Positions 4,868 to 62,587 of a stretch of 64,000 bases of DNA are shown one piece after another. The DNA is from Eledone cirrhosa. Taxonomy: Eukaryota. How positions within the stretch are numbered: position 1 is the stretch's first letter; every line of letters begins with the position of its first letter. Where the stretch lies: positions 17,112,001-17,176,000 of the forward strand of contig OZ024743.1 in NCBI GenBank assembly GCA_964016885.1. The letters are read 5' to 3'. The translations under genes were made by a program, and so were the position numbers. The notes under the pieces are model-generated. The model searched no databases. It was given only the letters and a program-made list of their open reading frames with translations, and was not told the DNA's origin.

Positions 4868-5268
4868 ATATTGGTAAAAGGAAAAGAAAATGCTGACAAA
4901 TTGTTCCCAGTGAAAAATAGTTTAATTAGGAATAAGTAAAAATTAGTAATATGTATTCAGTTTTGGTTTTAAGATTTCACCGGTTGCGCATTTCTAATGC
5001 CTTTCAAAAATAATTTTGAGATAGTGCACCCGTGATGTTTGCTCTAATCTGATTAGTTTTGGAAATTCTACCTGTTTTATGTGAAAAAAGTGGCTCCAGA
5101 TGTATTAAAATAAGATTCGCGCCAATTCGTGTTGCAAAAATTCTTGTGGTCAAAACAATTTTGATTGGTCGGTAGAGGTCATGTGAATGTTAAAAATTGA
5201 TTTTGCGCCAAATGTAGGTTTGTCTCGGCTGATTGAGAAGTCACTGAAAAATAAGTATTTTAAGACAA

Positions 5269-5310
<42 letters not shown>

Positions 5311-6864
5311 TAGTAAAGAGGTTCATTGTTGTGATAATTGTCAGTAGGGATGTGTGTATGAATTGCAGTCATGTTGACAGGTCAACAGTTCAGGTGCCTA
5401 TTAAGACAAGTGTGTGTGTGTGTGTGTGTGTGTGTTGCAGAGTAATTCGTGGTAGAGGGATCGCTCAGTAGGAATGTGTCTGTACGTGTGTGGGGGATAT
5501 TTTAACACGTTAAAAGATATTTTTCAGCTCTTGTCTTATACGGAGAAGTATGTGTGTGTGTGTGTGTGTGTGTATGAATCTTTGTATGTTAGTGTACGCG
5601 TGTGTATGTGTGTGTGTGTATATATGTGTATGTGTGTGTATATGTGTATATGTGTATATGTATGTGTGTGTGTGGGTGGACCAGTATTTTTTGTGACACT
5701 GGTAAAAATGGTGTACATTATTCGATATTTTCAGTAAACGATTCTCTCAATAGAACATCAAAAACCTTAATAATAAAAGGTGTGAAATGATATATAGTAT
5801 TGTCATAACACCAAGGTGTATATGAGTGTCCAGATTGTATTACAATACGGCAGGGCCTAATGGATTTCCCTTGCAGTATGTACAATCTGGGCACACACAC
5901 ACACCTTGGTGTTATGACAATACTATATATCATTTCACACCTTTTATTATTAAGGTATTTGATGTTCTATTGAGAGAATCGTTTTTACTGAAAATATCGA
6001 ATAATGTACACAATTTTTACCAGTATCACAAAAATACTGGTCCACCCACACACACACTCACACACACACATAGACACATATACACACACACACATATCTA
6101 CACACACACATACACACGCGTACACTAACATACAAAGATGCATACACACACACACACACTTCTACGTATAAGACAAGAGCTGAAAAATATCTTTTAACAT
6201 GATAAAATATCCCCCACACACGTACAGACACATTCCTACTGAGCGATCCCTGTACCACGAATTACTCTGCTACACACACACACACACCCACAATCCTGTT
6301 TTAATAGGCACCTGAACTGTTGACCTGTCAACATGACTGCAATTCACACCCATATCCCTACTGACCATTGGACCTGTTTACTACTACAAACCTCTTTACT
6401 ACTACACACACAAACATATTTGTCTTAAAATACTTATTTTTCAGTGACTTCTCAATCAGCCGAGACAAACCTACATTTGGCGCAACATCAATTTTTAACA
6501 TTCACATGACCTCTACCGACCAATCAAAATTGTTTTGACCACAAGAATGTTTGCAACACGAATTGGCGCGAATCTTATTTTAATACATTTGGAGCCACTT
6601 TTTTCACATAAAACAGGTAGAATTTCCAAAACTAATCAGATTAGAGCAAACATCACGGGCGCTCTATCTCAAAATTATTTTTGAAAAGCATTAGAAATGC
6701 GCAACCCGTAAAAACTTAAAACCAAAACTGAATACTAACCAATACTTATATTTATTACTAATTTTTACTTATTCCTAATTAAACTATTTTTCACTGGGAA
6801 CAATTTGTCAGCATTTTCTTTTCCTTTTACCAATATATCATAACTCGTGTGTTACACCTCTATT

Positions 6865-8955: not shown

Positions 8956-9393
8956 TGAAAATTAGAGTCAATGACTCCAATTGAAACCCTGTAATTATTA
9001 AGCTCCAAGTATAAAATACTGAGCCGTATAATAATAATATATATGCAGTAAGAAACACAGTAAACCGTGTGTCTAATATTACAAGGGTTGAAAAACCACA
9101 TTTGTTTGAAATATTTAACCAAGAAACAGACAGAAAGATAAAATAAAATTATATTATATTATACAAACCGCCTCAATAACAATTACATCTCTCGGACAGA
9201 TTATCCCTAATCTGTTTCGCCCTGAGTGTGTTTGCAACAGATAATCCATGGGCATCATCAGCGAGATAATATGATTAAATGCGACAAACACTATGTACCA
9301 ACAATTAATGGTTAAATATTTCAAACAAATGTGGTTTTTCAACCCTTGTAATATTAGACACACGGTTTACTGTGTCTCTTACTGCATATATAT

Positions 9394-9465: not shown

Positions 9466-10266
9466 AACGTTTAGCAAGGTTCATTGATTAATCAACGAAT
9501 AAGGTTTTACAATAGATTAGAAGCACTCGACAGTTATAGTCAATAACTATATTATTGACTATATTTAATAATTTAAATATACTCTTTATTACCCTTGGAG
9601 TTATGTTAAATTATCTTTTTCATTTTATATTTGTTTAAACTTTGATAATATACGTTCTTTCAAATATTATAGTCTAAAAATTTCAAGTTATTTAATTAAT
9701 TGATTATTTCTAATTAACTTAATATTAGAAAAAGAATAAATGTCACGCATCATATACAATGATTCTCCTTCTCCCTATCTAATTATATGTTAGCATACAT
9801 ATCTCCCTTTGTTTGTGTTTACTATCATCTCTCTTTCCTGTTCTCTCTCGCCTCCTGTTTGCTCTCTCACTCTCTCATTTGGTCCCACTATAATACGGAG
9901 GTATACATATTGTATTATTTAAATGTTTAACAGTTATGTAGTTATTTGTTTATATTTATTACTTTCCTTTATATATACATATTATATTTATTATAGTTAT
10001 TATTATATATTTTCATACCCATTTTCCTACATACCCTTTATATGTATTTTTCATGTTACAAATCATGGTATATAAATATTGAGTTTTGTCCTAACTAATC
10101 ACTGCCAAGATGGGAAATGAACCATCAGCACAATTGATATATGTCAGACATCAATGTATTTTACCTGATGAGGACATACTGATGAAATAGCTCAGTACCT
10201 CTGAAATATGTATAATAAAATATATTTGATCACATGAATGTCTATATTTATTAATATTTTGAAATA

Positions 10267-10330: not shown

Positions 10331-11679
10331 GTTGTTATACCCATGACTTCCAAATATCTGATCCACCGAAACACAGCTGTTTCGGACCATACCAAAATCA
10401 ACATACTGATTGCGGATTTGGTACGGGTGATGAGAAAGGTGTCCCGCATGTGCAACCCCGAAGAACTAGAGAGACACATACAACACTTCATCCACCGTAT
10501 GCAGTTCTCTGGTTACAATCAGAGAGATAAAATCAGAGTGTATAGAGGAGCCAGAACCAAATGGGAAAAAATGGTAAATAATGATACAAATGGGACCTGC
10601 CCCTTGTATAGGAGCAAACTTTGGAATAGAATAGAAAGAACTAGGAATAAGGCTAATAGAATAAACTCATGCTATGATAGCAATAAATACCAGAGTGTTA
10701 TGTTCATCGATACAAACCCTAGAGGTGAATTAGCTTACAAATTTAGAAGGGCCTTAGTTAAACATAAACTCAATATTAAGATAGTAGAAAGATCAGGTAC
10801 CTCCATAAAACCACTTATTAACAAGACATACCCATTTCAAAGACCTCCCTGTATAGATAAGAAATGTATAATCTGTAAATTAAGCCCGCCATATTAACTG
10901 TAAAACTAGAAATGTATATAGGATAAGATGTACTGAAGGACAATGTAGAGCTACAAATATAGTGTACATAGGTGAGAGAGCTCGTAGTAAAGGGGAACGG
11001 ATAAATGAACACTGGCGAGACCTTCAAGATAGTAAAGAATCATCTGTACTCTACCAACATATTAAAATAGAACATACGGGTAAATTAGAAAACATAGAAA
11101 TAAAAATAGAATCTACACACAGAAAAGACGCAATGATTTGACAAATCACAGAGGCAATAAACATAATTGAATTACAATCAAAATTAAATAGAAAACATAA
11201 GTGGAACAGCAACATCACAACTTACAATTAAGGACAAAATGAAAACACACACGTACATAGAACAAACAACCAACCAGTAACATGTAAATAAACAAAAAGA
11301 TAAATGAATATAAACACACACAAATACATGTAACACATGCGCAAACTAAGCACACAACACACACACACAAACAAGATGGCATACGACAGAACAAATGAGA
11401 GGCACAAAAAACAAAGAAAAGAATCCCCAGTCACTGAAGAGGTCACAGAATGTGTGACGAAATAACTTTGACAATATATAAACAACCATCTGGTTGTGGA
11501 ACCAACCAACCAACCGGAAATTTATAAATTCCTAAATTTATAAACTTATTATAATAAATTGAAGTGAAATATATGGTGCGTGTGTTTCTTATTGGCAACA
11601 TGACCCTCCCAAAGTATAACAATATCGGATTCAACACACGGTTTCAGATAAAGATTATTGCTAAACAAATTCAGAAACG

Positions 11680-11681
<2 letters not shown>
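10331..11681 (+). mobile_element. 5'-truncated Penelope-like element (Nematis/Neptune-like): RT C-terminus, GIY-YIG, pLTR
   Basis: ORF 10295-10897 resembles PLE thumb/linker (SGYNQRDK, KIVERSG, CIDKKCIICK). A decayed VYIGE/NEH endonuclease follows. HHR at 11429-11473; inserted in (TA)n; homologous to 22946-23948. Confidence 0.85.
11429..11473 (+). ncRNA. Minimal hammerhead ribozyme motif in pLTR
   Basis: agtca CTGAAGA g GTCAC agaatgt GTGAC GAAA taac TT tgac. Confidence 0.7.
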
Positions 11682-11761
<80 letters not shown>

Positions 11762-11896
11762 CTACAACATATTAATAAATATCGACATTCATGTGATCAA
11801 ATATATTTTATTATACATATTTCAGATAAGCGTATCTCCCTTCCCTTGTTGCAAATAGAAGTAAGTAATATAATCCCTACTTTAACATAATACATT

Positions 11897-11983
<87 letters not shown>

Positions 11984-11986
<3 letters not shown>

Positions 11987-14900
11987 AGTATGTAAACGTA
12001 CATACATATATGTATACCGACGTACGATAGTATGTATATATATATATACATACATGCATACATATATATATGCACATATGGATTCACCGAACATTTATTA
12101 TGATGCTCGTTGTGTTTGTAAACAAACATCCCGTATTAAGCCGTAGTGTTTAGCAACCACCGTTGCTAGTTTGTTCAACACTGACAAAGGAACGCTGTAC
12201 TAGTTTCAAGCTTATTAGCTATCATCAGCAACGTATACCTTCCTGCCAGATTGTTGAACGTATATACTTACCTTATGCATATTAACGGCTGAGTAGCCCA
12301 ATTTGCATATCGAGTGGGTTAATCGGCCGGGTGCACCGAAAACGATAGACGGAAAAAATGAAACGATAGCTGACGATAGCTAACAAGCTTGACACTAGTA
12401 CAGCGTTCCTTTGTCAGTGTTGAACAATCGAGCAACGGTGGTTGCTAGACACTACGGCTTAATACGGGACGTTTGTTTACAAACACACCGAGCATTATAA
12501 TAAATCTTCGGTGAATCCATACGTGCATATATATATGTGTGCATGTATGTATATATATATATACATACTACTGTACGTCGGTATACATATATGTATGTAC
12601 GTGTACATACTTATATTTAAGTAACAGCCGTACTAAGAGTGGGAAATGAAATATCGTTTCATTTTTTCCGCTTATCGTTTTCGGTCCACCCGGCCGATTA
12701 ACCCACTCGATATGCAAATTGGGCTACTCAGCCGTTAATATGCATAAGGTAAGTATATACGTTCAACAATCTGGCAGGAAGGTATACGTTGCTGACGATA
12801 ACTAACAAGCTTGAAACTAGTACAGCGTTCCTTTGTTAGTGTTGAACAAACGAGCAACGGTGGTTGCTAGACACTACGGCTTAATACGGGATGTTTTGTT
12901 TACAAACACACCGAGCATTATAATAAATGTTCTGTGAATCCATACGTGCATATATATATGTGTGCATGTATGTATATATATATATATATATACATACTAC
13001 TGTACGTCGGTATACATATATGTATGTACGTGTACATACTTATATTAAAGTAACAGCCGTACTAAGAGTGGGAAATGAAATATCGTTTCATTTTTTCCGT
13101 TTATCGTTTTCGGTGCACCCGGCCGATTAACCCACTCGATATGCAAATTGGGCTACTCAGCCGTTAATATGCATAAGGTAAGTATATACATTCAACAATC
13201 TGTCAGGAAGGTATACGTTGCTGACGATAGCTAACAAGCTTGAAACTAGTACAGCGTTCCTTTGTCAGTGTTGAACAAAGGAGCAACGGTGGCTGCTAGA
13301 CACTACGGCTTAATACGGGATGTTTGTTTACAAACACACCGAGCATTATAATAAATGTTCGGTGAATCCATACGTGCATATATATATGTGTGCATGTATG
13401 TATATATATATATATACATACTACTGTACGTCGGTATACATATATGTATGTACGTGTACATACTTATATTTAAGTAACAGCCGTAGTAAGACTGGGAAAT
13501 GAAATATCGTTTCATTTTTTCCGTTTATCGTTTTCTGTGCATCCGGCCGATTAACCCACTCGATATGCAAATTGGGCTACTCAGCCGTTAATATGCATAA
13601 GGTAAGTATATCCGTTCAACAATCTGGCAGGAAGGTATTCGTTGCTGACGATAGCTAACAAGCTTGACACTAGTACAGCGTTCCTTTGTCAGTGTTGAAC
13701 AAACGAGCAACGGTGGTTGCTAGACACTACGGCTTAATACGGGACGTTTGTTTACAAACACACCGAGCATTATAATAAATGTTCGGTGAATCCATACGTG
13801 CATATGTATATGTGTGCATATATGTATATATATATATACATACTACTGTACGTCGGTATACATATATGTATGTACGTGTACATACTTATATTTAAGTAAC
13901 AGCCGTACTAAGAGTGGCAAATGAAATATCGTTTCATTTTTTCCGCTTATCGTTTTCGGTGCACCCGGCCGATTAACCCACTCGATATGCAAATTGGGCT
14001 ACTCAGCGGTTAATATGCATAAGGTAAGTATATACGTTCAACAATCTGGCAGGAAGGTATACGTTGCTGACGATAATTAACAAGCTTGAAACTAGTACAG
14101 CGTTCCTTTGTTAGTGTTGAACAAACGAGCAACGGTGGTTGCTAGACACTACGGCTTAATACGGGATGTTTGTTTACAAACACACCGAGCATTATAATAA
14201 ATGTTCTGTGAATCCATACGTGCATATATATATGTGTGCATGTATGTATATATATATATATACATACTACTGTACGTCGGTATACATATATGTATGTACG
14301 TGTACATACTTATATTTATGTAACAGCCGTACTAAGAGTGGGAAATGAAATATCGTTTCATTTTTTCCGTTTATCGTTTACGGTGCACCCGTCCGATTAA
14401 CCCACTCGATATGCAAATTGGGCTACTCAGCCGTTAATATGCATAAGGTAAGTATATACGTTCAACAATCTGGCAGGAAGGTATACGTTGCTGACGATAG
14501 CTAACAAGCTTGAAACTAGTACAGCGTTCCTTTGTCAGTGTTGAACAAAGGAGAAACGGTGGTTGCACGACACTACGGCTTAATACGGGATGTTTGTTTA
14601 CAAACACACCGAGCATTATAATAAATGTTCGGTGAATCCATACGTGCATATATATATGTGTGCATGTATGTATATATATATATACATACTACTGTACGTA
14701 GGTATACATATATGTATGTACGTGTACATACTTATATTTAAGTAACAGCCGTACTAAGAGTGCGAAATGAAATATCGTTTCATTTTTTCCGTTTATCGTT
14801 TTCGGTGCACCCGGCCGATTAACCCACTCGATATGCAAATTGGGCTACTCAGCCGTTAATATGCATAAGGTAAGTATATACGTTCAACAATCTGGCGGGA

Positions 14901-16063
14901 AGGTATACGTTGCTGACGATAGCTAACAAGCTTGAAACTAGTACAGCGTTCCTTTGTCAGTGTTGAACAAACGAGCAACCGTGGTTGCTAGACACTACGG
15001 CTTAATACGGGATGTTTGTTTACAAACATACCGAGCATTATAATAAATGTTCTGTGAATCCATACGTGCATATATATATATGTGTGCATGTATGTATATA
15101 TATATATACATACTACTGTACGTCTGTATACATATATGTATGTACGTGTACATACTTATATTTAAGTAACAGCCGTACTAAGAGTGGGAAATGAAATATC
15201 GTTTCATTTTTTCCGTTTATCGTTTTCGGTGCACCCGGCCGATTAACCCACTCGATATGCAAATTGGGCTACTCAACCGTTAATATGCATAAGGTAAGTA
15301 TATACGTTCAACAATCTGGCAGGAAGGTATACGTTGCTGACGATAGCTAACAAGCTTGAAACTAGTACAGCGTTCCTTTGTCAGTGTTGAACAAACGAGC
15401 AACCGTGGTTGCTAGACACTACGGCTTAATACGGGATGTTTGTTTACAAACATACCGAGCATTATAATAAATGTTCTGTGAATCCATACGTGCATATATA
15501 TATATGTGTGCATGTATGTATATATATATATATACATACTACTGTACGTCTGTATACATATATGTATGTACGTGTACATACTTATATTTAAGTAACAGCC
15601 GTACTAAGAGTGCGAAATGAAATATCGTTTCATTTTTTCCGTTTATCGTTTTCGGTGCACCCGGCCGATTAACCCACTCGATATGCAAATTGGGCTACTC
15701 AGCCGTTAATATGCATAAGGTAAGTATATACGTTCAACAATCTGGCAGGAAGGTATACGTTGCTGACGATAGCTAACAAGTTGAAACTGGTACAGTGTTC
15801 CTTTGTCAGTGTTGAACAAACGAGCAACGGTGGTTGCTAGACACTACGGCTTAATACGGGATGTTTGTTTACAAACACACCGAGCATTATAATAAATATT
15901 CGGTGAATCCATACGTGCATATATATATGTGTGCATGTATGTATATATATATATATACATACTACTGTACGTCGGTATACATATATGTATGTACGTGTAC
16001 ATACTTATATTTAAGTAATAGCCGTACAAAGAGTGGGAAATGAAATATCGTTTCATTTTTTCC

Positions 16064-16066
<3 letters not shown>
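11984..16066 (+). mobile_element. Retrozyme-like tandem array: nine ~424-bp HHR units plus a 5' inverted near-unit
   Basis: CTGACGA cores at 12370, 12792, 13221, 13645, 14067, 14491, 14913, 15337, 15763. 11984-12368 is inverted. No real ORF; (TA)n on both sides. Confidence 0.9.
14460..14547 (+). ncRNA. Type I hammerhead ribozyme (representative intact unit)
   Basis: CGTTG CTGACGA tAGCT aaca AGCTt GAAA CTAG TA CAGCG. Palindromic stem III; stem I extends via GGAA/TTCC, CTGGCA/TGTCAG, GTTCAACA/TGTTGAAC. Confidence 0.88.
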
Positions 16067-16132
<66 letters not shown>

Positions 16133-16158
16133 AGTATATGTATATATGTATATATATA

Positions 16159-18428: not shown

Positions 18429-18873
18429 TCAAATTACAAAATATGAGGAAATAATAGACAAAAATATAACTATATTTTCTTCAAATCCCGACTGCAGATT
18501 CGCCGATCCGTGTGAGCCTAATACATTTTAATAGTGCATTATCGCTGTGAATCTGATACGGCTTATCAAGAGACCCCTCAGAAAAAAGGACTGCTTCTTG
18601 ACTCGTTTATAGCAAGTAAGCATCTCTCGAGAGGAGGGGAGAGATATAAACACATAATACAGTGGTCACAGAAGGGTTGTAAGGTGGACAGTGAGCGAAT
18701 AAGTTATTCTCTCTGTCTCTCAGTTTCTCTCTCACTCTTTCTCTCTCTCTATGTATATATATATATATTTATAGTAATAATAATAAAATTGAAGACTAAA
18801 ATCCATAGAGGGCTCGATAAGGAAAGTATATATCAAATATATAAGAACCGTAGAGCAAATATTTATTAAAATA

Positions 18874-18949
18874 ACAGATTAAAGTTTAAGCAAAGAATCG
18901 CTGCTTTCACCCTTAACGGGATCTTCTGAAACTAACAAAGTCAATCTGT
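18874..18949 (-). ncRNA. Type I hammerhead ribozyme with variant CAGAAGA core
   Basis: Minus: ACAGATT..AGTTT CAGAAGA tCCC gttaa GGGt GAAA GCAG cgattct TTGC TT AAACT tt AATCTGT. Confidence 0.7.
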
Positions 18950-19856
18950 AAACGCAGAACTGGATATTTCAAAAAACGTTGCAACCGGAGGAAGACAGGA
19001 AGACGATACTTTGGTTCGTGGTAACGTTCGCTGGCAAAGAACGGGAAAAAACGAATAATACGTCATTAATAGGCTCGGTGAAAAACAATTACGCGCAAAG
19101 ACAAAACCACGTTATGGTATAAAAGAGGTCGTAGACTAATGTTCTCTTAGGTGGTGCATAGAGACGTTCTCTGGCAATGAACGAAAAAACGAAGATAATA
19201 AGTCATATGTGGAGCGTGGAGAAAAATAGCACGCAAAGAGCGTGGAGAACAATAGCACGCAAAGACAAAACCACAACATTCTAACTAGGAGACCAAATGA
19301 ATCTCCGCTACAGAGTTAAGAACAAAGTAAATAAATACAATACAGAAGTAATAGAAACAAATAAATACATACACGCAAACAGATACGTACATACACAAGC
19401 ATACGCAAAACCTTACCATGGGTATACTAAACCACGCACATATAAATGTGTGTGTGTGTATGCTTGTGTACAAATAAATAAATAATTATATAAACGTATA
19501 TAAGTAAATAAATACGTATATAACAAGCGCACACGCATACCTACATATAAATACACGAATGTTCGGAGACGTAACTCAACTAAAACAAGAAGTACACATA
19601 TACACACACCCACCATACGTACGAACCTGCACACTCACGCGGACGCAAAACTCCCGTGTACACATAGCCAAACCCTAAATACCAGAATATGTAAAGATTA
19701 TACGCTATAACAGTCAAATATACGTACGGGAAGGTATACATACCTTCACAAAACATACGGGTAATATATACTTACCTATGCAAATAAGTAAAGGAATAAA
19801 CAAAACATATACTTAGCTCCCACATCAAGACGTAAAATATCCACGTATAGATCGTG

Positions 19857-21190
19857 CTATCCGTTAGGGTATAACGTGGGGCTGTAATACAGGAAAGTTT
19901 TGTGCAATTTATGTTTACAAGCCGAAATTGCCTCAGATTTTTTGTTTAAGATGTGGTCTGTAGCGTAGAGTATTTCCAGGGTCTCAGCGGCGCAGAGGTC
20001 ACATGGTCTTTTATTTCCGTTATACGATCTAGCCCTAGCTAGGATCTCCCAGTGTAACTTATATTGGGTGTGGTTGTCTTTTAGACTCCAGATATAAGCT
20101 GAAAGTGACGTCATATTCCTTCTTAGAGGGTAACGAAAAGAATGGGTATGCATGTAAAGACGCTGCTTGAAACTATTGGCGGTTAACCCTATGTAGGCCC
20201 TACGGGACGTGGGTGTTACAACCTTACATTTGTAGACAATGTTACTAGAGAGGCATTTCCCGGATAGGGGGCAATCAGCCCGATTCCTACAATTACAGTT
20301 AGTACTAACTACAGGGTTGCACGTGTTCCTACGGCTAGGTAGTTTAGCTAAATTTGAAGCTGTGATGTTATGTGCAAGGTTAGGAGTCGTAGAGTAAGAA
20401 ATTTTAATAGTATTTCTACTAAAAATTTTACTATATTTATGTGTAGGGGGAAAATGCGTCGTAATAAGGGAAAGAAAGATCTTAGCTAATGGTGTGGCCA
20501 CCTCCATATTATATGGTGGGTTAAACCAACAAATGCGACGGGATCTATTTCTTCTAGGTCTATTTTCGTACTCTGTATATGCTACCTTATCGACAAATCC
20601 ACTTCGAGCAAGAGCTTCATTGTAATAAGTGGAATGGTCGTTGAAAATGCGCTCGTTGGTGGAAAGACGGGAAAGCCTCAACGAAACGTTTCTTACCAGG
20701 TTCTTGGTTATGCTGGCAGGATGGTTGAAATGCTTACTTATGTAATTAGCGTATCATTCGGCTTTCTATACGGGTAATACAACCCATTCAATAAATTGAA
20801 GGTAACGTCGAGATAATTAACGACCGAGAGATTGGCCTCGACCTGTATAGAGAGGTTGAAGCCTTTAAAGAAGGCTGTGAGTTCTTTTCTGAACCTGTCG
20901 CAAGCACGAGGTCCGCACTTAGTCATGGTCAAAGACTATCGTCACGGTACAAACCACCGCCCGCGTTGGGGAATTCGTCCTTGATAGAAAAAAGAAGGAA
21001 AAGGCCAATAAGATCAGTAACCTCCGCAGAGTCACTGGCGCCCATACTCACGTCGAATGGGGTACTATTGGATTGTTTTATCCAAATAGAGTCGTCGAAA
21101 TTAATCACCGACTTTCGGGCATTAAGGATGACATCAACTTCAAAATCCTTAACCACTGTGAGTGTTTTAGCGAAATTGATAGCTCTTTGT
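19857..21190 (-). pseudogene. PLE RT plus GIY-YIG endonuclease, frameshifted
   Basis: ORFs 20929-21156, 20738-20932, 19857-20681: WFNPPY, CNCRNRADCPLSGKC, IVYKC..AYIGLT..FKQR..H, CDLC. Confidence 0.88.
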
Positions 21191-21386
21191 TAGTGTCAGA
21201 AGATCCCGTTAAGGGAGAAAGCAGCGATTATTTGCTTAAACTTTAATCTGTTATTTTAATAAATATATATATATATTTATATATATATATATATATATAT
21301 AATTATATTGTTATACTTGGGGAGGGTCATATTTGCATAATATTGCCAGAATTAATATATATATATCTATATATATACACACACAC

Positions 21387-21446
<60 letters not shown>

Positions 21447-21470
21447 ATATAATTATATATATATATATAT

Positions 21471-21554
<84 letters not shown>

Positions 21555-21558
<4 letters not shown>

Positions 21559-22040
21559 ATAATAATAAAGTTGAAGACTAAAATCCAAAGAGGGCTCGAT
21601 AAGGATAAATATATATATCAAATATATAAGAACCGTAGAGCAAATATTTATTAAAATAACAGATTAAAGTTTAAGCAAAGAATCGCTGCTTTCACCCTTA
21701 ACGGGATCTTCTGAAACTAACAAAGTCAATCTGTAAACACAGGAGTGGATATTTCAAAAAACGTTGCAACCGGAGGAAGAAAGGAAGACGATACAATGGT
21801 TCGTGGAAACGTTCCCTGGCAAAGAACGGGAAAAAACGAATATAATACGTCATTAACAGGAGCGGTGAAAAACAATTACGCGCAAAGACAGAACCACGTT
21901 TATGGTATAAAAGAGGTCGTAGATTAATGTTCTCTTAGGTGGTTCATAGAGACGTTCTCTGGCAATGAACGAAAAAAAACGAAGATAATACGTCATATGT
22001 GGAGCGTGGAGAACAACTGCACGCAAAGACAAAACCACGT
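21555..22040 (-). mobile_element. Solo pLTR fragment of the 18.8-21.3 kb PLE family, HHR at 21659-21734
   Basis: Direct repeat of ~18771-19275 starting at a TA run. Confidence 0.85.
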
Positions 22041-22569: not shown

Positions 22570-22945
22570 CACTCGCTTTTATAGATAATGATATATATAT
22601 ATTGTTATACTTTGGGAGGGTCATGTTGCCAATAAGAAACACACGCACCAGTTGCTTTCACTTCAATTTATTATATATTTATAAATTTATAAATTTACAA
22701 ATCTACAAACTTATAAATTTCTGGTTGGTTGGTTGGTTCCACAACCAGATAGTTGTTTATATATAGTCATAGTCCTTTCGTCACACACTCTGTGACCTCT
22801 TCAGTGACTGGGGATTCCTATCTTTGTTTCTGTGTCTTTCCTTTCTTCTATCCTACGCCATTTTGTTTCTGTGTGTGTGTTGTGTGCTCAGTTTGCGAAT
22901 GCGCCACATCCGGGTGTCCGTGTGTGTTTGTGTTCATTTATCTAT

Positions 22946-23387
22946 TTCAGGTACCTCCGTAAAAACACTTATTAGCAAGACATACCCGTTCCAAAGACCC
23001 TCATGTATAGATAAGAAATGTATAACCTGTAAAATAAGCCCCCATATTAACTGTAAAACTAGAAATGTAGTGTATAGCATAAGATGTACTGAAGGACAAT
23101 GTAGAAACAAAAATATAGTGTACATAGGTGAGACAGCTCGTATTATAGGGGAACGAATAAATGAACACTGGCGAGACCTTCAAGATAATAAAGAATCATC
23201 TGTGCTCTACCAACATGCTAAGATAGAACACAGGGGTAGATTAGAGAACATAGAAATAAAAATAGAATCCACACACAGAAAAGATGCAATGTTTAGGAAA
23301 ATTACAGAGGCAGTAAGCATAAAAGAATTTCAACCAAAATTAAATAGAAAATATGAGTGGAACAGCAACATCACAACTTACAATTAA
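22946..23387 (+). pseudogene. PLE Cys-linker plus GIY-YIG endonuclease (C-terminal fragment)
   Basis: CIDKKCITCK..NCKTRNVVYSIRC...C...VYIGETAR...ERINEH...HAKIEH...RKITEAV...LN. Confidence 0.88.
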
Positions 23388-23680
23388 GGACAAAATGAAA
23401 ACACACACAGGACAAAATGAAAACACACACACACATAGAACAAACAACTTACAATTAAGGACAAAATGAAAACACACACAGGACAAAATGAAAACACACA
23501 CACACATAGAACAAACAACCAACCAACAATAAATAAATAAACAAATAGATAAATGAACACAAACACACACAGACACCCGGATGTGGCGCATGCGCAAACT
23601 GAGCACACAACACACACACAGAAACAAAATGGCGTAGGATAGAAGAAAGGAAAGACACAGAAACAAAGATAGGAATCCCC

Positions 23681-23725
23681 AGTCACTGAAGAGGTCACAG
23701 AGTGTGTGACGAAAGGACTATGACT
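23681..23725 (+). ncRNA. Minimal hammerhead ribozyme motif (inverted copy at 22765-22809)
   Basis: AGTCA CTGAAGA g GTCAC agagtgt GTGAC GAAA ggac TA TGACT. Confidence 0.75.
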
Positions 23726-24039
23726 ATATATAAACAACTATCTGGTTGTGGAACCAACCAACCAACCAGAAATTTATAAGTTTGTAGATTTGTAAATTTA
23801 TAAATTTATAAATATATAATAAATTGAAGTGAAAGCAATTGGTGCGTGTATTTCTTATTCGCAACATGACCCTCCCAAAGTATAACAATATCGGTTTCAA
23901 CACACGATTTCAGATAAAGAATCTTGCTAAACAAATTCAGAAACGAGATATATATATATATATATGTATGTGAGTGTATGTATGTGTTTGTATATATATA
24001 AACTCTTTTTGTGTTAAATCATCTCAGTGGTAATGCACT

Positions 24040-45439: not shown

Positions 45440-45469
45440 TTATTCTTCTTCTTCTTCTTCTTCTTCTTC

Positions 45470-45507
<38 letters not shown>

Positions 45508-45519
45508 GTTATTGTTATT

Positions 45520-46190
45520 CCTTGAATCTCAGTCATTGATGTTGGTTAACTGGAAAGTCCGTTGGATTGAATATCAAGCCACTACCTGCAGCCTCAGATA
45601 TTCAGGACGTATCGGAGGGTTCTTGCTGTTCCAAGCAAGCATGCCTTTTGAAGCGTTCCAAAAAGCGTGAAGGGGCCGATTTTCTTTAACCATCCCTGGA
45701 AACCTTTGGAGATAGTCCCCAGTGCGCCTATGACAATCGGGATCACTTTGACTTCATGGCAGTTCCAAATCCTTTTCACCTCCCACTTTAGGTCCTGGTA
45801 TCGGTTAATTTTCTCCCTCTCCTTCTTATTATTATTATTATTATTTTACATATTATTATTATTATTATTATTGTTATTGTTATTCCTTGAATCTCAGTCA
45901 TTGATGTTGGTTAACTGGAAAGTCCGTTGGATTGAATATCAAGCCACTACCTGCAGCCTCAGATATTCAGGACGTATCGGAGGGTTCTTGCTGTTCCAAG
46001 CAAGCATGCCTTTTGAAGCGTTCCAAAAAGCGTGAAGGGGCCGATTTTCTTTAACCATCCCTGGAAACCTTTGGAGATAGTCCCCAGTGCGCCTATGACA
46101 ATCGGGATCACTTTGACTTCATGGCAGTTCCAAATCCTTTTCACCTCCCACTTTAGGTCCTGGTATCGGTTAATTTTCTCCCTCTCCTTC
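45520..46190 (-). repeat. Two tandem copies (365-bp period) of the 3' ~306 bp of the family A element
   Basis: 45520-45826 and 45885-46190 have the same truncation point and (ATT)n spacers. Confidence 0.92.
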
Positions 46191-46249
46191 TTATTATTAT
46201 TATTATTATTTTACATATTATTATTATTATTATTATTGTTATTGTTATT

Positions 46250-49200
46250 CCTTGAATCTCAGTCATTGATGTTGGTTAACTGGAAAGTCCGTTGGATTGA
46301 ATATCAAGCCACTACCTGCAGCCTCAGATATTCAGGACGTATCGGAGGGTTCTTGCTGTTCCAAGCAAGCATACCTTTTGAAGCGTTCCAAAAAGCGTGA
46401 AGGGGCCGATTTTCTTTAACCATCCCTGGAAACCTTTGGAGATAGTCCCCAGTGCGCCTATGACAATCGGGATCACTTTGACTTCATGGCAGTTCCAAAT
46501 CCTTTTCACCTCCCACTTTAGGTCCTGGTATCGGTTAATTTTCTCCCTCTCCTTCTCTTGCACTCTCGTGTCGAACGGGCAGGCCACATCCACAATCAGG
46601 CACGATTTTTTTTCTTTGTCCACAACCACCAGGTCAGGTCTATTGTGTTCCAGTTTTTTGTCCGTCTGTATCCTAAAATCCCACAGCACCTTCACCTGAC
46701 TGTTCTCCATCACCGCCTCTGGCCTATGCTCATACCATTTCTCAGAATGTGGTAGATTGTTTACTTTGCACAGGTGCCAGTGGATCACCCTGCCCATCAC
46801 ATCGTGTCTCCAGCCCTTATAGTGGGTCTGGGCTAGGTGTTTACACTCGGATACAATGTGAGCCACAGTCTCCTCTCTCTCTCCACAGATCCTGCACAGT
46901 GGGCTAGCCTCCTCCTTGTAGATATGGTGCTTCAACCACTTCGTTTTGAGGGCCTGCTCCTGCGCAGCCATTAGCATTCCTTCTGTAGCCTTTTTGAGGT
47001 CTCCTCTTCTGAACCAGTTCCATGTCTGTGGATCTCTAAATTCAGTTTTCTCAAAGAAGGTACTATGAAGGGATTTTCCCTTAAGGCTGCTCTTCCTCCT
47101 TGATGTTATTTCCTCCTTGGACATCCCCTGGCCTACTGTCCCCTCCTTCAGTACAGTTCTGAGCATTGGCTCCTTACTATAGGTCACGTATTTGTATAGG
47201 TTGTTTTTCTCCATCTGAACACAGTCCTCTATGCTGATAAGACCTCTTCCACCCTCAGATCTCCTTAGGTAGAGTCTATCGACATCACTCCTCTTGTGGA
47301 ACATGTTGTAGATAGTCAATAGCTTCCTAGTCTTCCTATCCATTTCTTTTTGTTCAGCAACATTCCATCTCAGAATTCCCGCACTGTACCTAATAATAGA
47401 CACAGCTCGGGAATTTACTGCGCTTATGGCATTTCTGCTGTTCAGATGTGACTTCAATACGCTCCTTACTCTCCGAATGTATTCAGTTCTTAACAATTCC
47501 TTCATTTTTTTGTTCTTTATGCCATCAGCCTCCAGAACGCCCAAATACTTGTATCCTTCCTCAGAGTTAATTTCCTTTATCATCTCACCTGTTGGTATCT
47601 GGATCCCGTTACTTCTGCTCAACCTACCCCTCTTCATCACAATGACTCCACATTTACCAATACCAAACTGCATACATATATCACTGCTGAAAATACGGAC
47701 AGTGTCAACAAGCACATCCAACTCCTTCTCACTTTTCCCGAAGAGCTTAAGATCGTCCATGAAGAGGAGGTGATTGATGGTAAGCTCTCCCCTTCCCAAC
47801 TTGTATCCTGCTCTCACTTTTCGCAGCATAATGGTCAAGGGCATCAGGGCAAGGACAAACAACAGAGGGGACAGGCTATCTCCCTGGAAGATACCTCTCT
47901 TGATCTTCACGCTTCCCAAGGGTACTCCAGTTGATGTCAACTCTGTCTCCCAGGACCCCATACTCCTGCCCAGCAACTGTCTGATGTTATCTGCCACACT
48001 GAAGACCTCCAGGCTTTTGGTGATCCAGGAATGAGGCACCATGTCAAATGCCTTTCTGTAGTCTATCCATCCCATGGCAAGATCAGTGTGTCTCCTCCTG
48101 CAATTCCCCATTACCATCTTATCAATAAGCAACTGGTCCTTTGTACCTCGTGACTTCTTTCGGCATCCTTTCTGTTCGTCCGGTAACAAGTTGTTTGTGT
48201 GGAGGTGATGGTAGATTTCCTCAGACACAATGCTCGTCAACAGTTTCCACATTACGGGCAGACATGTGATAGGTCTATAGTTGGTAACATCATTACCCTT
48301 GATTCGGTCTTTCATTATCAGAACTGTGGTACCTTTTGTCAACCACTCTGGCACCTCACCCGACACCAAGCAGTCATTGAACATGGCCGTCAGCTTCGGG
48401 TGGAGGGATGTTAAATGTTTAATCCAATACCCCTGCACACCATCTGGGCCTGGTGATTTCCAGTTGGTTAGTTTTTTGGCTTGCCCCTTAAGAGTTTCAA
48501 CTGTGATACTCAAATCAGTCTGTTGTTGTGCCTTCTCACCGATCTCCCTCTGTACTGTCTCAATCCACCCTGCCTGGGCATTGTGTCTAACATCCTGCTC
48601 CCATATTCCTCTCCAGAATGTTTTAGCTTGTTCCGCCCCAGGGATCAAGTCGTTGCCTCTTTCTTTCCCCTCAAGCTGTCCAAACAGCATCTTCTGGTTG
48701 TTGTCGAACATGCGGTTCTGTTTATACTGACTGACTCTGTTCTCGTATCGCCTGATTTTGGCACTCTTTGCTACAATGCGTTGCTTCAATTCCTCTATGA
48801 TAATATTTAGCTTTTTACTCCTAGTTTTGTATTTTATTTCCAGTCTATTTTTAGTGCCTATGTTTTTTAGTGTCCCATTCAGTAGTGACTCAAGCTTTCC
48901 TATGTCATTTCTCATTTCCCCGATTTGCCCACTCAGTCGCTTCTTCCACCAAGGCTCTGCTCTTTCTTGTCTGTTGTTTCCTCTCGCTTTTATACCAAGT
49001 AGTTTCCTCACCGTATTTGCTGTTGCTTTGAGGATATTGTTGCACTGGTGAAGACTCCTCGCCTCAAGGTATGGGATGACTTTGTTTACCTTAGCTGTTG
49101 TTTCTTTTAACTTTTTCCTGTCTACAAATCTTAGGTTCATAGGTCTCCCACTATCATTGTTCAATTCATCTACCACTAGATTTAGGATGTCAACCGAATC

Positions 49201-59845: not shown

Positions 59846-59980
59846 AATATATATATATATATAATCTGAGTTTTTCGACTATTAATAATGATTTCTTTAT
59901 TATTTATTTATTTATTTATTGTTTTTTATATTTATTTATTTAATTTTAATGATTTCTCTGTCTTTTCCACTATTAATAAT

Positions 59981-60093
59981 TGTTTCTACTTTAGGCACAA
60001 GGCCAGCAATTACCCAGTGCATTACTGGTACTTTATTTTATCGACCACGTAAGGATGAAAGGCAAAGTCAACCTCGGCGGGATTTGAACTCAA
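59981..60093 (-). mobile_element. 5'-truncated SINE with 17-bp TSD
   Basis: TSD tttccactattaataat at 59964 and 60094. Confidence 0.9.
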
Positions 60094-60321
60094 TTTCCAC
60101 TATTAATAATAACATTCAATTTGTTTGCAATTATGCAACAAGCCTCAATTTTAAAACCATGTCAGTAGAATGAACACTTCATTATTGGTCTTCTGTTGGC
60201 ATGTAAACAGAACTGCAGACGCTAATGTTTCTGGGTTTTACCCTTCACCAGTACAGGTCACTGTTCACCTGTCAACTGTCCGAGGTAGTAAACATTATAT
60301 ACTGTTTTATTAAATATATGT

Positions 60322-60428
60322 GACTGATCGGCCTTATGTGCATATTAGCAGACTGGCTTATTAATCGTATCTGCATATTAGCAGATCCACTGATCAGCCA
60401 GATTTGCATATCAGCAGACTGGCCAGTA
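60322..60428. repeat. ~33-bp imperfect minisatellite, three copies
   Basis: tgcatattagcaga, tgcatattagcaga, tgcatatcagcaga. Confidence 0.75.
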
Positions 60429-62587
60429 AGTTTCCTATATACGAGCGATACGGTCGGCTTTGCCAAATTCAAATAAACAAAACATTTTCGCTCTACATCG
60501 CTGAATACATTAAACATATATGTATATATTATGTTAAAAATCCAGGGGTTTTATAGTGAGAACGGAAATATATATGAGCTGGGTGTATTCCTCGCACCAT
60601 TTATTAGTAGTTTAATGACAACTGAAACAAATGAATCAGTCTCTTGTAGGTGTTTTTATGATTCCCACTATTGTTGATGGCGTTGGTGGTGATTATGTTG
60701 CTGCTCTCTGTAGTGCTATTAGACTTTTGCTTCTGTTGTTCTTATTGCTGGTTGTTGGAGCTGCGACCGAGGTTGGTGTCGCAGCTTCTATCGTTCACTG
60801 TCGGTGTTGCTGCTTTTGGAGTCTATGTGTTGGAGGCAAAGTAACAATGTGGGTCCTCGTTTCCGGTTAAGGGCAAAATGTTCTCAGGAGATAACTCGCT
60901 CTGCTAATGAAAACGTAGATTTTGCCAACTGAAAATATGTTTCAGTGTTTAGAGAAACCTAACCCACTAGCTGAATGAGATGGGAATATGTTCTATCTTG
61001 TTTGCATTGATATATAGGAGGATCTCTAAACTTATCTCCACACAAGTGAGTCTGAAATACAAGAGTGGGTCACAACACTCTCGCATCTACAGGCCAGGAT
61101 ACATTTGGTGTCCAATCCTGTCGGGATCCCTATGATCTTGACCCTTACAGTTCTTTCTTCTCAGCAATATTTTTTTAATACTAAGTAGTCTGTCTGCACG
61201 ATGACCATACAATACTTGTCGACCAGAGATTCGGCTCTGAAGAGGAATGAAATGCCTGCGTATTGCCTTGCTTCAGACATATCCTCTACATCGAACATAA
61301 TGACTTCCATTGTTCTTACACAGTTCCGCTGTGATGCCATTTCTATCCATCTAACCGAATGTATAGAAATAGTTCTGTAGGTCATAATAACATTTATCTG
61401 GCGGTCAACCACACGGGTGGGAGAGCTATTTCAGCAATTGTGTTTTGTGATTTTTTTTCATCAGGCCGCGTACACCTAAGATGATTTATTCAGAAGTGTT
61501 TGCAGCCATAGCTGCAAATATGTTGTTGCTGCCGTTATTATTGTCTATGCAGTTATAGTTGTTCATGATGTTGTTGCTGTTACTGTCGTCGTCATCGTTT
61601 ATTTTACTTTTGTGTTGTTTGTGTTATCTTGGTGGTGATACTTGTGTTGGAGTGGCTGCTATCGCTGTTGTTTCCGTGACTGCCACCACCTCCATTGCTG
61701 ACTCCACCGTTGTTGGTGAGAACACTCTATTCACCATCATTGCTCATTCTACCGTTCTCATCAGCCCCGTTGGCATTGCTGTTTACGATTATGTCACTAA
61801 TATTTACAAATTCACTGTTCGGTTCATTGTAAAGTTGGCTTCTATTCAGCAGACTAAAATTGTCCGTCTACTCTCTTTCTTTTTCTAACAATGAGATGCT
61901 TATATGGCAAACTAATCCCCATTTGTCCCTTTAGACCCGAAGAACTACAAGTGGAGAAAATCTAACCAGCTCCCGAAGGTATGGGCTAGCTTGTCTATAA
62001 AACGGTAACATATGTTCAATATTCAAATATAAGTAACAATATCATTGCTAATAATCTTACAAGAGCGATGTGCCTCAAGTGTCGACAAGCGAACGAAAAA
62101 ATAATAATAATATCAACAATAGCAATAAAAACAATATTATTTAAAATAAGAAAACATGTCGTCGGATTATACTGAAGAGAAAGAGAAGAAAGAGAAAAAT
62201 TACATTTTAAGTATTGGGATTGTTACAGAATAAATATTATCAACGTTTCTCAACAGTACTTGGAGTGTCTGAAGCATGAATAGAGATGTTATACATAAAA
62301 ATCATAGAGCCCACTAGTAAAAGCGTAATATCATTCTACATCAAACCATCTTTAATAAAGTATTCTAAAAATTCTCACTATTAACTATTAAATTGAGCGC
62401 ACTCCTTATGTAAGAATAATAAATAATACAAATATAAACCAACTATCGTAACAAACACAATTACTTGGGATATGTAAACCAATATATATATATATATATA
62501 TATATATGATAAAATGGGTAGAAAAATACTGCTGGTAGCACATGGATAACATGTAATAAAATAAGTCCCTCATCAGTGATTTGCCGA

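Follow-up and report, generated by a model that had tools for sequence, protein, structure and literature searches.

The window, that is, the whole 64,000-nt stretch of Eledone cirrhosa DNA that was analysed (contig OZ024743.1, positions 17,112,001 to 17,176,000), carries a tandem array of a non-coding unit of 422-429 nt, headed by a single inverted near-unit (Table 1). We numbered the unit from the first base 3' of its predicted hammerhead cut. The direct arm opens immediately 5' of the hammerhead core, at unit 391, and stops at unit 275; tandem-repeat detection gave it a period of 424, 8.7 copies and 96% matches. The array holds low-complexity ORFs only. Since an ORF scan detected neither an RT nor a GIY-YIG frame in it, the window array is not itself an autonomous Penelope-like element (PLE).

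Table 1. Features of the tandem array and of the PLE1 copy, in window coordinates; S and L denote the two sites at which arms end.
Feature	Position	Strand	Remarks
Candidate TSD, left copy (interrupted TA tract)	11921-11991	+	71-nt match, 5 non-alternating steps
Inverted (S) arm	11979-12368	minus	unit 252-422 + 1-216/219; 3' end facing outward into TA tract
Hammerhead core within inverted arm (predicted)	12228-12204	minus	
Strand-switch junction	12363-12381	+	blunt join 12368/12369, or 6-nt annealing + 10-nt duplication
Direct (L) arm	12369-16069	+	32 nt + 8 full units of 422-429 nt + 275 nt
Octamer-like 8-mer	12712-12719	+	one per unit; conserved in all related families (alignments)
Tail, site S (unit 216-219) to site L (unit 275)	16011-16069	+	three predicted short hairpins; S = loop of first
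Candidate TSD, right copy	16067-16137	+	
PLE1 inverted arm, ending at its S site	22599-22947	minus	99% match to 23543-23891
PLE1 direct arm, 5'-truncated	22948-23951	+	GIY-YIG fragment; hammerhead motif 23686-23714; tail 23892-23951

Each unit contains a predicted type I hammerhead motif in which a one-pair stem III lies under a palindromic tetraloop. The pattern fits seven of the nine units of the direct arm (cores at 12792, 13221, 14067, 14491, 14913, 15337 and 15763) as well as the inverted arm; the cores at 12370 and 13645 have one core mutation each. Stems I and II show compensatory changes over four families: family A, to which the window array belongs, and its relatives B, C and E, detected in the same genome. 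Rfam gave no hammerhead match at gathering score, nor any among the 150 best of 176 weak hits, and weak microRNA-like matches to the TA-rich hairpin of the unit were taken as composition noise. The unit folds much more stably than its shuffles (z -7.1), partly due to that hairpin. The octamer-like 8-mer we take to be a putative promoter, as in newt satellite 2. Donor-, branch- and acceptor-like motifs in the unit raised the idea of an intron that excises the ribozyme, which we dropped, the donor not being conserved in family B or C.

Two genome searches with family A produced 1492 and 436 candidates, and 117 family A arms were parsed. By sequence criteria the element is a metazoan non-LTR retrozyme, with tandem non-coding units, a type I hammerhead motif and a dispersed family. 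It resembles the elements described by Cervera and de la Pena (2020, PMC7229834) in its non-coding tandem units of a few hundred bases, its type I hammerhead and its low GC, and the axolotl ribozyme of that article in its weak stem III with palindromic tetraloop and a U-U pair at the base of stem II. RNA circles were demonstrated in that study; for the window element, self-cleavage and circularisation are putative. We conclude that the element itself is an ordinary representative of a known class.

Other repeats were seen along the way. Sister families C and E, recorded at L179:1706-2454, L204 and the L255-L284 group, have units of 467 nt (C, 99.4% median identity) and 466 nt (E, with one array of ~30 units). 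A decayed, more distant hammerhead repeat, family D, with the same octamer-like motif, occupies 59870-60480 of the window (minus strand) and L148:2040-2440. A tandem repeat with a period of 365 nt lies at 45446-46556 of the window (three copies, 98% identity).

The original prediction placed an inverted near-unit at the start of the array and a 3' tail of ~56 nt beyond the inverted match, and both are present. The inverted arm (390 nt, 95% identity to the array units) stands back-to-back with the direct arm, which overshoots the inverted match by 56-59 nt; placing the S end at 216, where the match to the template stops, gives the upper figure of 59. The 3' ends of both arms face outward into TA tracts. 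The proposed start at 11984 belongs to a real arm, but the exact base falls inside a TA-ambiguous boundary, 11979-11991, where the last 10 nt of the left candidate TSD copy equal the reverse complement of unit 207-216.

Are the ends of such arrays random or fixed across the genome? Family A was queried twice, once with both sites internal and once with both excluded, and families B and C once each, which yielded 106 merged regions (730 kb). These loci were the best-scoring 40 per query of 272-1492 candidates, a sample in which young copies are over-represented and a few segmental duplicates are included. Arms truncated at a locus edge or at N (3 A, 8 B, 1 C) were left out of the end counts. 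We observed that 166/183 readable 3' ends fell at S or L (A 100/114, B 30/32, C 36/37): the termini are fixed. The 100 ends of family A lie within 27 of 422 positions (binomial p about 1e-102). Two-arm inserts of families A-C with both ends classed had one S and one L in 47/50 cases (p=2e-11); the exceptions were one S+S and two L+L pairs, one of the latter with a 239-nt gap. Neither arm was favoured in length, the S arm being the longer in 27/47 pairs. Back-to-back pairs numbered 66 and apparent single arms 63, at least 4 of which conceal a very short second arm. S and L occupy homologous places in family C, which is much diverged from A, and the tails measure 56-59 nt (A), ~61 nt and ~69 nt (C). 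In families A, B and C the region between the sites is predicted to form short hairpins, with S inside or beside the first loop.

PLEs of the same genome provided a comparison. The PLE reported at 22601-23948, with the array's layout and a ~57-nt tail, is there (PLE1, Table 1) and its tail measures 57-60 nt; what had been called coding is only a 5'-truncated fragment, with a GIY-YIG Pfam match at E=5e-4, below the curated cut-off. At loci not selected on their ends, 27/30 PLE1 matches ended at two sites 60 nt apart; for PLE3 the two sites are 88 nt apart and account for 57/78 matches, with another 14 continuing into the ORF. A third PLE family has a tail of ~66 nt in 5/32 rows. Since PLE1, PLE3 and the third family all have two fixed ends, we regard two fixed ends as the PLE footprint in this genome. 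The length of the tail is specific to the PLE family (60, ~66 and 88 nt), and the retrozyme tails span 56-69 nt; hence equal tail length, offered earlier as a link between the array and PLE1, is not supported as one. Judged by motif, PLE3 and the third family belong with the Hydra clade, whose published linker and RT motifs they carry.

Several further PLE copies deserve mention. At 18750-21600 of the window (minus strand) lie nested copies of PLE3, which is very abundant, young and Hydra-like; elsewhere it has open frames of 713 aa, and it gave 84335 first-look candidates. The second position of its hammerhead core is A where U is usual. An older, 5'-truncated second copy of PLE1 (10334-11683) ends at its L site ~300 nt left of the array; the copy is nested, and on either side of it lies an end of a different hammerhead-bearing repeat, the two ends standing tail-to-tail (about 10100-10265 and 11760-11898). 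Inverted-arm pairs also occur in TA tracts at 4953-5284 with 6404-6735 (97%) and, as a short pair, at ~9020-9090 and 9320-9385; the pairs spanning 4953-6735 and 9020-9385 are likely further PLE-type inserts. In a near full-length PLE1 (L170), a tandem upstream copy starts near the hammerhead cut and the tail encodes the start of the ORF.

We then turned to the targets and the joins between arms. Ends at S or L adjoined a TA run in 154/166 cases (families A-C). A 71-nt candidate TSD flanks the window array (Table 1), with a score equalled by 1.5% of 68 shuffled flank pairs. Across loci the TSD-like signal is weak: 9/46 inserts against 8.8% of shuffles, with a 14-nt candidate at the young insert L189.

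The window junction had been described as a gata microhomology near 12368, which is right only in part. Parsed directly, it is blunt, with a 0-nt overlap. However, unit 395-400 recurs as the final 6 nt of the inverted arm (12363-12368), and 12363-12381 holds a 9-mer repeated with period 10, so that 6-nt annealing followed by a 10-nt slip would account for the sequence equally well. The claim that the strand switch is fixed at the hammerhead core failed: only 2/74 family A junction ends lie at unit 385-400, and the switch point is variable. After six of 66 junctions had been dropped (overlap or gap >30 nt, or mixed family), 60 were analysed. Small inserts are present at 19/60, and an overlap of at least 3 nt at 25/41 of the insert-free junctions, against ~7.5% by chance.

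The only enrichment seen among junction 5' ends of family A is near the ribozyme cut site, with 11/74 within -2 to +20 of it against 3.9 expected (p=0.0015) and 0 in each flanking window. The enrichment is not significant in family C (3/26) and is absent from family B (0/20). The pile-up in family A fits an RT that runs off a cleaved 5' end or stalls at a ligation scar.

Could the element instead be mobilised by a LINE through twin priming, or move as a Helitron-like or MITE-like DNA element? TA targets, internal microsatellites and hairpins, and inversions are all known from such elements. Also in favour, the sampled inserts show no RNA-editing scars in the form of an A-to-G strand bias (143 vs 114 in family A, p=0.29; 21 vs 24 in C). 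Against it, the two outer ends are both fixed, and one has a tail that the other lacks; the arms cover overlapping sequence; poly(A) and a constant terminal inverted repeat are missing; and the 5' ends of family A are enriched at the ribozyme cut site. We consider this family of explanations very improbable.

Do the two arms of an insert come from the same source? In counts that exclude the TA-rich part of the unit, the arms of one insert shared at least one variant in 35/37 cases in family A (18.2 when shuffled), 11/13 in B (3.3) and 8/13 in C (0.66), and none of 5000 shuffles reached these values in any of the three. The excess in family A is partly due to two subfamily states, which still implies that the arms came from a matching source. 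Three young inserts (L042, L253 and L250), with 23, 12 and 15 near-full units over both arms, lack subset-shared variants and have 0.17-0.35 private changes per unit. The homogeneity of these youngest long inserts is what one unit copied over and over would produce, but a source array that was itself homogeneous would produce it too. In L189, a young family C insert, successive units switch back and forth between two variant states (period 2), which suggests a dimeric template or source.

The window array differs from these inserts. Its two arms have no variant in common; outside its end, the inverted arm differs by 7 private changes, a number similar to the total load per direct unit, and variants are common to direct units 1/4, 2/5, 3/6 and 7/8. 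On the simplest reading, the window copy would be an older, shorter insert that was later lengthened when a block of 3 units and a single unit were duplicated locally. In other long arrays (the joined loci L041 and L068, and L045) recurrent internal deletions, with short microhomologies at the joins, connect unit 186 to 381-388 or unit 325 to 391, and were then amplified as higher-order repeats.

Perhaps, then, the array is a satellite born locally from a PLE end or monomer and grown by unequal exchange, its inversion being a repair accident? Subset-shared variants in the window array and in the long arrays L044, L055, L068 and L041 do mark local duplication. As the sole cause, however, this route is refuted, given that it leaves fixed outer ends and the one-S-one-L rule at dispersed loci unexplained, and young two-arm inserts are homogeneous. 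It accounts for later growth, not for insertion, and we give it almost no credence as the origin of the array.

What is directly visible in these inserts is a set of back-to-back 5'-truncated arms, one ending at S and one at L, in TA targets, with variable junctions and shared variants. We conclude that the array was probably produced as one insertion of a non-LTR retrozyme by the RT-endonuclease of a PLE acting in trans. The original prediction, that the array's structure is a sign of PLE insertion, is upheld in part: copies across the genome end at non-random places, carry a tail on one side only and include an inverted arm. It loses the core-tied switch and the tail-length link.

The activities called for are described in published work. 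One PLE protein nicks each of the two strands and extends them, favours AT-rich DNA and begins synthesis at two sites inside the RNA, which define the tail (PMC11167929); PLE insertions are marked by an inverted copy, by a tail confined to one side and by a bias towards TA (PMC8557442); and other sequences are held to be mobilisable in trans by PLEs (PMC3846280). We envisage that a PLE enzyme would make staggered cuts in the two strands of a TA tract, that each cut 3' end would prime internally on retrozyme RNA, one at S and one at L, and that two cDNAs copied from one RNA source would be joined end to end.

A PLE enzyme might also prime only once, the cDNA then hairpinning on itself and the return strand being resolved at the second site; a self-priming model has been proposed for PLE inversions (PMC3846280). 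Such fold-back accounts for shared variants and for the one-S-one-L rule. Its length rule holds in 36/47 pairs, and the paired 5' ends lie within 40 nt of each other at 20/60 junctions, against 11 expected. In 11/47 pairs, however, neither arm could be contained in the other, close 5' ends would be equally expected if two cDNA ends annealed at local hairpins, and the PLE protein extends both strands in vitro (PMC11167929). Hence we favour dual priming in most cases and hold fold-back as the general route to be unlikely.

What was the template? Many cut sites lie within the arms, and yet the 5' ends accumulate just after the cut; because of this, either a circle or a partly cleaved multimer may have been copied, and the two appear about equally good candidates. 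A more specific picture can be drawn, to which we give somewhat less than even credence: a PLE enzyme, probably a dimer, would load one small RNA circle by way of the conserved three-hairpin structure, prime both strands at the two sites and run round the circle many times.

Which PLE supplied the enzyme? PLE1, the family at 22599-23951, is an obvious candidate. Its S-to-L distance is 60 nt against the 56-59 nt of the retrozyme, the two have TA targets in common, its copies are young (median 98.2% identity in the 170 nt near the end), long ORFs are present in the genome and are near-complete, and 14/15 positions match over 15 nt around its L site. That match, however, is at chance (p=0.27) and lies ~17 nt off the retrozyme L site, where it is not an end. 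In addition, family C has a 69-nt tail at homologous sites, and PLE3, which also has long ORFs in the genome, is equally young (98.8%), so that either family is young enough to be the driver. We therefore regard PLE1 as a doubtful choice.

An autonomous PLE that shares the retrozyme ends had been suggested as a check; none was found among the sampled PLE families, in an incomplete survey that covered 30 of 150 hits of a GIY-YIG family search plus fragments in other loci. The terminal region of PLE1 showed no significant similarity to the unit (shuffle p=0.27). PLE1 and PLE3 were both rejected as homologous parents, their local alignments being at shuffle level and blastn negative; the 3' region of PLE3 gave p=0.04 against the unit on both strands, which we did not accept as homology. 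We also compared a profile of families A, B and C with 20 endonuclease-like clusters drawn from 99 motif hits, at least one cluster being a false hit. No 3' region in these clusters consistently matched the retrozyme profile, and every strong hit turned out to be a retrozyme insert in its own right. When a hammerhead pattern was used to look for a PLE with the same stem III, it gave 4448 matches, mostly to the hammerhead of family E; the 100 listed were nearly all sister retrozyme.

Chimeras of PLE and retrozyme were screened for among the single arms, 56/63 of which had enough flank. The best candidate, L206, failed on age, since the PLE arm shares only 93% identity with its nearest relatives whereas the retrozyme arm reaches ~99%, and three others (L043, L055 and L146) adjoin old or rearranged copies. 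Because homologous ends were sought and not found, we do not assign the retrozyme to a named PLE family. We conclude that it works like a non-autonomous PLE.

How does this compare with known systems? The inserts share with endonuclease-bearing PLEs (Frangieh 2024, PMC11167929; Craig 2021, PMC8557442; Arkhipova 2013, PMC3846280) an inverted 5'-truncated arm, a one-sided tail, two internal start sites, AT-rich targets and microhomology junctions, as these are described there. Unlike those PLEs, the retrozyme has no ORF, its tail is 56-69 nt rather than 30-40, and its arms are whole-unit multimers. The PLE1 tail lies in the start of its ORF, whereas in the retrozyme another 147 nt separate the tail from the next ribozyme.

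PLE mobilisation of animal retrozymes has already been proposed, in two publications that argue from shared ribozymes, co-occurrence and homology. PLEs are named as strong candidate drivers of metazoan retrozymes in PMC7229834, where two-armed inserts with fixed S and L ends are not among the features described. Li, Clavereau and Pollet (2026, 10.64898/2026.07.22.740005) present animal retrozymes as non-autonomous relatives of PLEs, on evidence from frogs of co-occurrence and of homology to PLE ends, and discuss local amplification. Their text relies on PLE-end homology and contains no terminus analysis, whereas we observe the footprint without PLE-end homology. We saw no terminus footprint in PMC7229834 or in the 2026 preprint, and we found no published analysis of animal retrozyme insertion ends in the material covered.

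The footprint points to the class of enzyme that spreads animal retrozymes, a role which the texts discussed above propose for PLEs but do not show. The exact predicted start sites (unit 216-219 and 275) could be used in the published in vitro PLE assay. As a substrate that is short and non-coding, the unit also lends itself to the questions of how inverted insertions with a single tail arise from PLE activity and of whether a circular template is copied. If the enzyme does load a small RNA circle, these inserts would bear witness directly, in the genome itself, to rolling-circle reverse transcription and to a structure-based hijacking of PLEs, through a three-hairpin structure without sequence homology to any PLE end.
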